The translations under genes and the position numbers were made by a program. The notes beneath the pieces are model-generated. The model was given only the letters and a program-made list of their open reading frames with translations, was not told where the DNA came from and did no database searches. 64,000 bases of DNA, from the NCBI GenBank assembly GCA_035561095.1, contig DATMYE010000054.1:35202-99201 (forward strand), given 5' to 3'. Below are positions 38,200 through 46,274 of this stretch, in pieces (position 1 is the first letter of the stretch; each line of letters starts with the position of its first letter). Source of the DNA: Clostridia bacterium. Its GTDB lineage: Bacteria; Bacillota; Clostridia; Christensenellales; CAG-138.

Positions 38200-39129
38200 T
38201 TACGCGGGTTCCTGTGCGCCGAGCAGTTTTAGGATGAGCGCCATGCGCACGAACATGCCGTAGCGCACCTGCTCAAAGTAAGCCGCGCGCGGGTCATCGT
38301 CCACCTCGGTGGCGATTTCGTTGATGCGCGGCAGCGGATGCATGACGATCATGTCCGCTTTGGCGAGCGCCATCTTGTCCGCGGTGAGGACGAAGAAGTC
38401 CTTGAGCCGCAGGTATTCCTCCTCGCTGATGAATCGCTCGCGCTGCACGCGGGACATATAGAGCACGTCGAGGTCCTTGATCGTGCCCTCGAGGTCGGTG
38501 GTCTCGGTGTAGGGCACGCCTTTGGCGTTCAGCTCCTCCTTCACGAAGGCGGGCATGGTCAGCTCCTCCGGCGAGATAAAGCGGAAGCTCACGTTTTCAT
38601 ACCGCGCAAGGCAGGTGACAAGCGAGTGGATCGTGCGCCCGAACTTAAGGTCTCCGCAAACCCCGACCGTCAGGCCGTTGAAATCGCCTTTGTAATGGCG
38701 GATGGTCAAGAGGTCGGTGAGCGTCTGCGTCGGGTGGTGGTGACCGCCGTCGCCCGCGTTGATCACCGGGATTCCGGCGTAGCGGCTCATGAGCTTGGCC
38801 GTGCCCTCCTTCGGGTGCCGCACCACGATCAGGTCGGTGTATTTGCCGATCGTCCGCGCGCTGTCCGCGATGGTCTCGCCCTTTGCCGCACTGCTGGTGT
38901 TCGGGTCGGAAAAGCCCAGCGTGCTGCCCCCGAGGCGGGTCATCGCCGCGTCGAAGGAAAATTTGGTGCGGGTGGAAGGCTCGTAGAACAGGCTCGCCAT
39001 GAGTTTTCCGCGGCAGCAGTCGGCGTAGCGTTCGGGGGTCTGGATGATGCGCTCCGCGAGCATGAGCAGTTCTTCGATCTCCTCAAGGGTAAAGTCGCTC
39101 GGGGCAATCAGGCTTTTGTTTGTCAGCAT
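38200..39129 (-). CDS. pyrB: Aspartate carbamoyltransferase catalytic subunit
   Basis: FYEPSTRT, KGET, NAGDG.HHHPTQ, GDLKFGRT, HPLPR; start ATG 39129 after AAAGGAG. Confidence 0.96.
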   Translation of the reverse strand: MLTNKSLIAPSDFTLEEIEELLMLAERIIQTPERYADCCRGKLMASLFYEPSTRTKFSFDAAMTRLGGSTLGFSDPNTSSAAKGETIADSARTIGKYTDLIVVRHPKEGTAKLMSRYAGIPVINAGDGGHHHPTQTLTDLLTIRHYKGDFNGLTVGVCGDLKFGRTIHSLVTCLARYENVSFRFISPEELTMPAFVKEELNAKGVPYTETTDLEGTIKDLDVLYMSRVQRERFISEEEYLRLKDFFVLTADKMALAKADMIVMHPLPRINEIATEVDDDPRAAYFEQVRYGMFVRMALILKLLGAQEPA

Positions 39130-39180: not shown

Positions 39181-39209
39181 AAAAAAACACCGGTTAAAAA
39201 ACCGATGTT
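39181..39209 (-). terminator. pyr leader terminator T3
   Basis: AACATCGGTT-TTTT-AACCGGTGTT followed by a U-run. Confidence 0.8.
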
Positions 39210-39484
39210 GGAAAACAAATATAGAATTGAGGGGAAACAATTCTCAGAAGCAAATGCTTCAATTGGAAAAGTCTAATAAAAAAGCCTTGATCAAAAAGAA
39301 AATCTCTTTTCCCGATCAAAGCCGAAATAGGGGACCCGTTTCTGGCAATAAAAAAGCCTTGAATGAAAAGGGAAACACTTTTCATCAAGGCCTTATCGAA
39401 CAATTCAAATTGGAAAAGAAGAGAAGGAATACGGGGAGTGCGGAGGCGTTTTTGAACTTTGTCTGCTTGCACCCGCGGGCTCAT
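39194..39484 (-). CDS. Putative pyr leader peptide (PyrL-like, 96 aa)
   Basis: AGGAG RBS and ATG about 35 nt after the predicted transcription start; frame stays open through AT-rich DNA and across two terminators, stopping inside the third. Confidence 0.65.
   Translation of the reverse strand: MSPRVQADKVQKRLRTPRIPSLLFQFELFDKALMKSVSLFIQGFFIARNGSPISALIGKRDFLFDQGFFIRLFQLKHLLLRIVSPQFYICFPTSVF
39278..39322 (-). terminator. pyr leader terminator T2
   Basis: GCTTTGATCGGGAAAAGAGATTTTCTTTTTGATCAAGGC followed by TTTTTT. Confidence 0.8.
39350..39391 (-). terminator. pyr leader terminator T1
   Basis: GCCTTGATGAAAAG-TGTTTCC-CTTTTCATTCAAGGC followed by TTTTTT. Confidence 0.82.
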
Positions 39485-39525
39485 CCTTGCTCCTGCCTTT
39501 CCTTCAGATTTTACTCATTTTGAGC

Positions 39526-39554
39526 AGTATATAAGATGCAACCTCACTTGTCAA
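39526..39554 (-). promoter_or_regulatory. sigmaA-type promoter of the pyr operon
   Basis: TTGACA (39554-39549), 17 nt spacer, TATACT (39531-39526). Confidence 0.8.
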
Positions 39555-44993: not shown

Positions 44994-45073
44994 GTGGAAG
45001 TATGCCCGTTTTCGGCATTGTTCCCTTGACAAACAAATCATATATGATAAACTAACGCTACAATTTCATAGGT

Positions 45074-45225
45074 CTGATGAGAGAGGCGCGGTTGTCAAGA
45101 GTAGCGCGAAAGCGCGAAAGGGGCTGCCGCCGAAGCATCCAAACCATCGTACAAGCGGAGGAGAGGGTGCTGGGCTGCGGGAGAATATGTCGCAGACTGT
45201 CACGAAAGTGGAGCGCTGTCATCGG
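45074..45225 (+). ncRNA. Lysine riboswitch aptamer (short-P2 variant)
   Basis: P1 GATGA/TCATC; conserved AGAGGCGC, AGTA (loop E), GAAAGG, GCCGAA, CTGGG, GAAT, ACTGTC, GGAGCGCT in order; upstream promoter TTGACA (45026-45031) with TGnTAAACT; precedes an amino acid ABC transporter. Confidence 0.88.
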
Positions 45226-45269
45226 TCAGGAGCGGACAGTAGCGTCCGCTCGCATCATCGCATGCACGA

Positions 45270-45425: not shown

Positions 45426-46274
45426 ATGAAGAAGATCATTGCCCTCGTGTTTGCGCTGATGCTCGCCGTGTCGAGCGTTGCGTGCACCGCAAAGCCCGCC
45501 GTGACCAGCGCCGTTTCCGGTGTGGAGGACGGCATTCTGACCGTCGCGATGGAGTGCGCCTACGCGCCCTACAACTGGACGCAGCCGACCGATGCAAACG
45601 GCGCGGTGCCGATCAAGGACTCCAACGAGTTTGCCAACGGCTACGATGTCATGATGGCGAAAAAGCTTGCAGAAGCCAACGGCTGGCAGCTCGAAGTCGT
45701 CCGCCTCGACTGGGATTCGCTGATTCCCGCCGTGCAGACCAGCCAGATCGATGCGGTCATCGCGGGACAGAGCATGACGCCGGAGCGTATGGAGGTCGTC
45801 GACTTCGCAGGCCCGTACCTCTACGCCTCGATCGTCTGCGTTACGCTGAACACCAGCAGCTTTGCGTCCGCAAAGGGCATCTCCGACCTCGCGGGCGGCA
45901 CCTGCACGAGCCAGCTCGGTACCATTTGGTATGACACGTGCCTGCCGCAGATCAAAGACGCCAAAATCCAGCCCGCCGCCGAAACCGCGCCCGCGATGCT
46001 GATGGCACTGGAGACCGGCACGGTCGATTTCGTCTGCACCGATATGCCGACCGCTCAGGGCGCGCTGGCTGCCTATCCCGACATGACGATCCTCAACTTC
46101 GCAAACAGCGGTGATGATTTCGCCGTCTCCGACAGCGATGTGAATATCGGCATCTCCGTGCGCAAGGGCAACACCGTGCTGCTGGACGCGCTCAACAAGG
46201 TTCTCTCCGGCATGACGGCGGATGACTTCAACGCGATCATGGCGGATGCCATTGCCGTGCAGCCCATCGGCTGA
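45426..46274 (+). CDS. Polar amino acid ABC substrate-binding lipoprotein (likely lysine)
   Basis: Lipobox SVAC; MECAYAPYNW, GYDV, WDSLIPAVQ, AGQSMT.ER; downstream of the lysine riboswitch. Confidence 0.88.
   Translation: MKKIIALVFALMLAVSSVACTAKPAVTSAVSGVEDGILTVAMECAYAPYNWTQPTDANGAVPIKDSNEFANGYDVMMAKKLAEANGWQLEVVRLDWDSLIPAVQTSQIDAVIAGQSMTPERMEVVDFAGPYLYASIVCVTLNTSSFASAKGISDLAGGTCTSQLGTIWYDTCLPQIKDAKIQPAAETAPAMLMALETGTVDFVCTDMPTAQGALAAYPDMTILNFANSGDDFAVSDSDVNIGISVRKGNTVLLDALNKVLSGMTADDFNAIMADAIAVQPIG

Follow-up and report, generated by a model that had tools for sequence, protein, structure and literature searches.

A probable pyrL-like, translation-coupled attenuator with in-frame tandem terminators ahead of a clostridial pyr operon

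Members of the Bacillota are expected to regulate their pyr genes through PyrR, and the PyrR attenuators of B. subtilis and many clostridia act on these genes by premature intrinsic termination, three attenuators serving the B. subtilis pyr operon. In the rph-pyrE attenuator of E. coli, a ribosome at the stop codon beside a hairpin blocks that hairpin, and the upstream frame is a real gene. Attenuation at E. coli pyrL-pyrBI is UTP-sensitive and coupled to translation (PMC4824070). The 44-codon pyrL ORF, ahead of pyrB-pyrI, runs into an intrinsic terminator, with a U/C run at +60 and the terminator U tract at +108 both inside the ORF. Transcription of pyrBI starts at AATTTG and involves reiterative transcription (PMC6524683). 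Several translation-linked checkpoints share one leader in the tandem attenuators of Salmonella mgtCBR (PMC3641672), and pyrimidine-linked attenuation with a leader peptide is reported in P. aeruginosa at carA, at the junction of arginine and pyrimidine synthesis (PMC4997734). Attenuators of the trp and his type combine control codons with a terminator and an antiterminator. Their terminator lies more than 20 nt past the leader stop (PMC4824070).

The window, that is the whole 64,000-nt stretch of DNA analysed here, comes from a clostridial genome that is 93.6% complete and carries a leader on the minus strand ahead of pyrB-pyrI-pyrC-pyrF-pyrK-pyrD-pyrE (Table 1). Pfam matches back pyrB, pyrI, pyrC, pyrF, pyrK and pyrE, while pyrD, outside the Pfam scan, was identified by sequence and position. 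We consider that this leader is probably a pyrL-like, translation-coupled attenuator that senses UTP. A first-pass annotation of the sequence had described a promoter, an AGGAG, an ATG at 39484, a frame of 96 codons, three terminators and a TAA within T3, and all of these were found where it had placed them.

Table 1. Features of the pyr leader region, in window coordinates
Feature	Position	Strand	Remarks
Sigma-A-type promoter, TTGACA-17-TATACT	39526..39554	-	11/12 consensus
Shine-Dalgarno (SD) of leader ORF, GGCAGGAG	39490..39498	-	AGGAG at 39494-39490; GGAGG in other relatives
Leader ORF	39194..39484	-	ATG 39484, 96 codons, TAA 39196-39194
U-poor, purine-rich 5' segment	39447..39521	-	Holds Arg4 and the start of Arg13
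First C/U-rich tract	39407..39446	-	Predicted UTP/CTP-sensitive slow zone; CGTRTT at 39433
T1 terminator	39347..39391	-	Hairpin 39391-39356, -15.8 kcal/mol, then U6-ATT
T2 terminator, second cassette copy	39275..39322	-	Hairpin 39322-39284, -15.0 kcal/mol, U6
U-rich tract before T3	39206..39274	-	By composition
T3 terminator	39181..39207	-	Hairpin 39207-39188, -9.1 kcal/mol, U7 tail
pyrB, first operon gene	38200..39129	-	Operon continues to 33378

Transcription is predicted to start near 39521-39519. T1 has a purine-rich 5' arm and a U/C-rich loop and 3' arm, and T2 is a copy of the same 72-nt cassette, the two being marked by direct repeats of 16 nt at 39362 and 39290, a separation of 72 nt or 24 codons. 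A simple terminator scanner detects T3 only; T1 and T2 have bulges. The T3 loop is U-rich, and the leader stop falls at the junction of this loop with the 3' arm. The 3' arm of T1 can pair with the 5' arm of T2 (-16.1 for the fragment alone), although the complete T2 wins; this cross-pairing may simply follow from duplication. A near-leaderless ORF of 4 codons (MSKI) begins in the AAAATG at the predicted start (39518-39504, minus strand); its ATG is kept in 24 of 27 leaders, its length and frame are not. A GC-rich hairpin at about 39176-39150 (minus strand), between T3 and the pyrB SD, is predicted in most relatives with varying sequence; members of the L019-L024/L130 clade show only a weak one or none. 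A periplasmic-binding-protein ABC operon diverges from the leader, and a TGCATGAATATATATGGA block at about 39650-39632 (minus strand), kept in relatives with the same upstream region (approximately L002-L013), probably belongs to the promoter of this transporter; it resembles an ArgR box. Elsewhere in the window, a Lysine riboswitch (RF00168, 74.8 bits, 45073-45226, plus strand) precedes a polar amino-acid ABC operon starting at 45426.

When the leader of the window is dinucleotide-shuffled, 2.8% of the shuffles leave its frame open; in the real sequence, the two alternative frames contain 6 and 4 stops. For a single sequence this is only suggestive, and the case therefore rests on relatives. 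From the 40 genomes of the genus we recovered 31 leaders. The start was assigned to the earliest ATG that lies 28 nt or more downstream of the -10 box and is accompanied by an SD-like word; this rule was fixed when the first 27 leaders had already been seen. The promoter is present in 27/27 leaders of this first set and in all 31, as are the SD and ATG. In all 31 leaders the frame is open from the ATG to the last terminator, against 7.5 expected by shuffling, with 0 stops in frame across the set and 101 and 54 in the other two frames, counts which overstate independence because the leaders are kin. This openness is retained over ORFs of 30-123 codons with 17 distinct ATG-to-terminator lengths. 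The stop lies inside the loop of the last terminator in 29/31 leaders, and the remaining two (L023 and L131) read through; in L131 the leader stop overlaps the pyrB start, a possible variant with translational coupling. The peptide itself is weakly constrained, with pN/pS of 0.80 over codons 2-20 and 0.90 over codons 21-30, and the motif CGTRTT is found at ATG+51 in 28/31 leaders and at ATG+52, in another frame, in 3/31. The low constraint on the peptide and the preservation of CGTRTT across a change of frame suggest that it is translation itself that is kept, more than its product. As regards RBS and frame, the comparison of related pyrB upstream regions proposed in the first-pass annotation came out in its favour, the SD, ATG and open frame being kept in 31/31 and the stop in the last loop in 29/31 while the peptide drifts.

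The number of terminators, in contrast to the T3-type terminator that is present in 31/31 leaders, is not fixed: 11 of the 31 have one, 13 have two, six have three and one has four. Extra terminators are in-frame cassettes of 69 or 72 nt, and every one of the 11 repeat spacings (51, 69 or 72 nt) is divisible by 3. In leader L011, the region from T1 to T3 corresponds to that of the window leader minus one 72-nt unit bounded by the 16-nt direct repeats; the only other differences are a single substitution and, in the T3 loop, a single base. Exchanges between C-G and T-A occur in both stem types, and the third pair of the T1 outer stem varies between T-A, C-G and T-G. In L129, three in-frame 51-nt repeats correspond to the 3' half of the cassette alone and have broken U tails; lacking a 5' arm, they were not counted as terminators and are read as U-rich spacers. 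On a midpoint-rooted pyrB tree of 40 rows, which omits L129-L131 because of their short pyrB, each of the 12 rows from outside the genus has a single-terminator leader, as does a clade of five members within it. A second single-terminator clade shares an unresolved fork (87/70) with multi-terminator rows. Well-supported sisters differ in number, with two terminators in L009 and three in L010, and three in L004 and four in L005. This pattern suggests that copy number is labile and that a single terminator, of the T3 type, is likely to be ancestral. The 'three checkpoints in series' of the first-pass annotation are thus not the core design, while its central proposal of translation coupling in the manner of pyrL is supported by the 31/31 open frames and by the lack of a competing fold described below.

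The base composition of the leader changes sharply along its length. In the window leader, the U content of the segment reaching from the start site to codon 14 is 0.12; it rises to 0.47 over the 45 nt ahead of T1 and stands at 0.45 over the 40 nt ahead of T3. The corresponding means over the 31 leaders, with the latter two stretches taken ahead of the first and the last terminator, are 0.13, 0.47 and 0.45. Further U/C tracts had been claimed before both T2 and T3; the tracts before T1 and T3 are borne out, but the T1-T2 spacer (~35 nt) is not a marked U tract. NusG-type TTNTTT motifs number 0-9 per leader and are absent from 7/31, indicating no shared requirement for them. In B. subtilis pyrG, reiterative transcription depends on a G3 run at the start. 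The start predicted here, AAAATG, contains neither a G3 run nor a run of three or more T.

Leaders of a similar kind are found in other genera. Among 44 further loci, 28 have a called promoter and terminator, nine a promoter only and seven neither. Under a loose SD rule, with the main start chosen by eye and with one hairpin (L118) mispicked by the script, 27 of the 28 carry an SD-led ORF, mostly of 12-36 codons, whose end lies inside or beyond the hairpin or no more than 11 nt short of it; the exception, L074, has its stop 21 nt before the hairpin. The U-rich tract between start codon and terminator, found throughout the genus, is missing from 15 of these 28 short leaders, in which U is at most 0.17 in the last 30 nt before the hairpin, and a U tract ahead of the hairpin is therefore not universal. 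In such U-poor short leaders, only the U-rich loop and the long U tail could sense UTP. The first-pass annotation's naming of UTP/CTP as the signal is consequently not supported as it was put, being a step that we infer and one for which many short relatives lack the U tract. By eye, SD-ATG, U-rich leaders with a terminator also occur in L203, from another family and perhaps with two hairpins, and in L132, from a distant pyrB clade.

Based on these features, we propose the following sequence of events. The first ~80 nt, which are U-poor and hold the SD and ATG, are predicted to be transcribed fast and to allow a ribosome to load, and the U/C-rich stretches before T1, in the cassette loops and 3' arms, and before T3 would then be the sites at which the nucleotide supply is felt. 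With ample UTP, by analogy with E. coli pyrBI, the polymerase would cross these tracts before the newly loaded ribosome catches up, so that a hairpin folds and transcription ends. With low UTP (and CTP), the polymerase would slow and the ribosome would close up, covering each 5' arm in turn until it halts on the T3 loop, and pyrBICFKDE would be transcribed. That the frame is kept open across one to four terminators in relatives makes it likely that a trailing ribosome keeps the genes on when UTP is low. Each cassette would be a self-contained sensor and terminator, gained or lost via the 16-nt direct repeats, and cassette number would set the tightness of repression. Transcripts ending at T1 or T2 would be without a stop codon, as for pyrL; tmRNA is present in the genome. 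Four RNA runs from one study share 9-11% of words, derived from relatives, and their contigs also cover DNA upstream of the promoter; two contigs end at 39344, near T1, but a joint there points to strain variation, and the runs were set aside as evidence on transcript ends and expression.

The resemblance to pyrL-pyrBI thus lies in the position ahead of pyrB-pyrI, in a leader ORF that runs into an intrinsic terminator behind a U/C run, and in the lack of an antiterminator among the predicted folds. The two differ in that the leader peptide studied here matched no Pfam family at E<=0.01, and so shows no PyrL homology by this search, in that there are one to four terminators instead of one, and in that the stop falls within the hairpin loop, whereas that of pyrL lies ~24 nt past the point at which the U tract begins. 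They also differ from each other in transcription start, predicted as AAAATG here in place of AATTTG (PMC6524683), and in that the leader serves a seven-gene operon in a member of the Bacillota. The window leader likely works like pyrL-pyrBI without being homologous to it, having been built independently. Short relatives with the stop 4-11 nt before the stem recall rph-pyrE, although here the leader is a dedicated one. Unlike PyrR attenuators, the locus has no PyrR, binding loop or antiterminator, and its three terminators lie within one ORF. By comparison, mgtCBR has two separate short ORFs with alternative stem-loops, not cassettes duplicated in one frame (PMC3641672), and the Pseudomonas leader controls carAB with a single terminator, arginine acting at the transcriptional level (PMC4997734). 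A trp/his-type attenuator does not fit, given the stop inside the terminator and the lack of an antiterminator. We found no description of the tandem form in the mostly open-access literature searched.

The strongest alternative retains the ribosome-gated terminators but takes ribosome speed, set by arginine supply or general translation capacity, as the main signal in place of UTP, with stalling at Arg codons letting the polymerase escape and terminate. Given the geometry of the leader, pyr would be turned off whenever the ribosome stalls, and carbamoyl phosphate would be saved for arginine synthesis. The genome has one CarA gene that we could find, along with argG, argF and an arg operon, and the U-poverty of many short relatives suits such a signal. 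Arg occupies 136 of 527 codons (26%, codons 2-18) in frame, compared with 46 and 39 in the two other frames and with 67 in shuffles. Among 23 hand-picked lineage representatives there are 65 Arg codons against 41.1±5.8 expected, with 17/23 above expectation, whereas the Arg ratio for the first 20 codons of 1096 ordinary genes is 0.51. R4, R13, R15 and R18, which include an R-x-R, are invariant in 20/20 multi-terminator leaders, three of these residues with synonymous changes, and a conserved Arg-Leu-Arg has been described in stalling leaders (PMC8632094). However, the Arg codons are scattered with no run, most single-terminator members have lost R13 and R15, and in 3/31 leaders R18 falls in a different frame. 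The leaders also come from related lineages, and Arg was one of 20 amino acids tested. Codons slow enough to set the lag of the ribosome would explain the enrichment too. This alternative leaves the strong switch from U-poor to U-rich in 31/31 leaders unexplained, and we consider it unlikely as the main signal. The enrichment is not needed by a pure nucleotide sensor, hinting at a second input. We tentatively raise, as a possibility that we ourselves would bet against, a two-input kinetic AND gate, in which the operon would be on only when low UTP slows the polymerase while arginyl-tRNA, available at the four conserved Arg codons, lets the ribosome run fast; this reading further includes a Bacillota lineage that has kept or regained coupling and an evolutionary stringency dial of one to four in-frame cassettes, gained and lost through direct repeats.

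Two further explanations fare worse. In the first, translation would set a fixed leak through the terminators, unregulated, and copy number would drift. Copy number does change freely between sister species, the terminator patterns match only the pyr leader and one unrelated hairpin, and no such leader was seen by eye before pyrG, upp, the permease or carA (for carA, in the only ~120 nt before the contig end). A weaker promoter would be simpler for reaching a fixed level, yet the promoter is near consensus, and both the U-poor/U-rich layout and the position before pyrB fit a sensor, making a mere damper quite improbable. The second is an RNA-only switch, in which a riboswitch or an antiterminator with an unknown protein acts and the ORF is incidental, or else Rho acting on the C/U tract. 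Pairing between the first tract and the purine-rich 5' end is possible, with an energy of about -20 kcal/mol, but this is no better than in local shuffles (median z 0.03; p<0.05 in 1/31), and cognate pairings have no advantage over cross-species ones. For the same reasons we rejected, as a selected feature, a timer in which the first C/U tract pairs with the SD of the leader, though this anti-SD pairing may still form. No Rfam family reached its gathering score, which leaves no conserved riboswitch or T-box aptamer among the families searched, and at E<=10 there were only 11 sub-threshold chance matches. In the predicted folds, forbidding the outer stem of the first terminator costs 7.5-15.8 kcal/mol in 31/31 leaders, so that no competing fold is evident. 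As for Rho, the gene is present, and the richest 150 nt of the leader ORF, at 43% T, lie above the 99th percentile for genes. In B. subtilis, Rho has a preference for RNA rich in C and U (PMC13323073). Neither an RNA-only switch nor Rho can explain the retention of the frame, and we hold this pair of explanations to be very unlikely.

The expectation of PyrR was addressed in both the genome and the leaders. A PyrR-HMM search of the genome found no pyrR (best match 30 bits against a cut-off of 138, a protein which reads as Hpt by sequence and by its tilS neighbour), extending the earlier remark that no pyrR lies beside the operon. Within the genus, pyrR occurs in 1/40 genomes (G004, without a close pyrB match) and in 0/21 of the high-quality ones. 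The Rfam PyrR model gave no match in the leader, but it is insensitive, with 0 matches in 20 loci of which five carry the site pattern; because it missed these control sites, we used a site pattern with controls. This pattern, drawn from the control loci themselves, is found in 14/17 controls, 0/31 genus leaders and 0/28 other leaders, in agreement with the absence of a PyrR binding loop noted at first. PyrR-type control is therefore largely excluded, and action through a divergent site, for which one could cite the incompleteness of the genome, the insensitive model and the 94/240 family genomes with pyrR, some of them with the same leader type, has a negligible chance of being correct. Such coexistence (G161 with L118 and, by coordinate match, G152, G159, G150, G117 and G075) shows that the leader is not simply a replacement for a lost PyrR.

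Translation-coupled attenuation would require the ribosome to keep up with the polymerase. It has been reported for E. coli that a terminator is repressed when a stop codon lies within a few bases of it and that this repression disappears once translation is removed (PMC4824070), and Bacillota are classed as 'runaway' at the phylum level (PMC13323073). By one home-made gene and terminator pipeline applied throughout, with small controls and with GC content as a possible confounder, 37/364 terminators (10%) lie within 12 nt of a stop codon in this genome (median 21 nt), compared with 5/20 in 300 kb of E. coli (median 23.5), 20/35 (57%) in 234 kb of Paraclostridium and Terrisporobacter (median 10). 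The count is 4/8 for Anaerofustis, and three members of the family give 3/13, 2/8 and 0/7. Gene purine content is 51.6% in this genome and 51.5% in E. coli, as against 58.6% in the low-GC clostridia. Ordinary genes of this genome hold terminators away from their stop codons, and the pyr leader has its stop inside the hairpin. Judged by this indirect proxy, with its home-made calls and small controls, the spacing fits a signature of coupled transcription that would be unexpected in Bacillota.

The E. coli-like spacing between stop codons and terminators makes the phylum-level 'runaway' rule testable in a named group. Likewise, the natural series of one to four in-frame terminators provides a ready-made test of whether stacking would steepen attenuation or only tighten it, and stacking of this kind is a design idea for tunable nucleotide sensors. 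If the two-input gate were true, one leader would apportion the carbamoyl phosphate made by a single CarAB to the pyrimidine and arginine pathways. Overall, this clostridial lineage appears to control its pyr genes by the distance between ribosome and polymerase instead of by PyrR.
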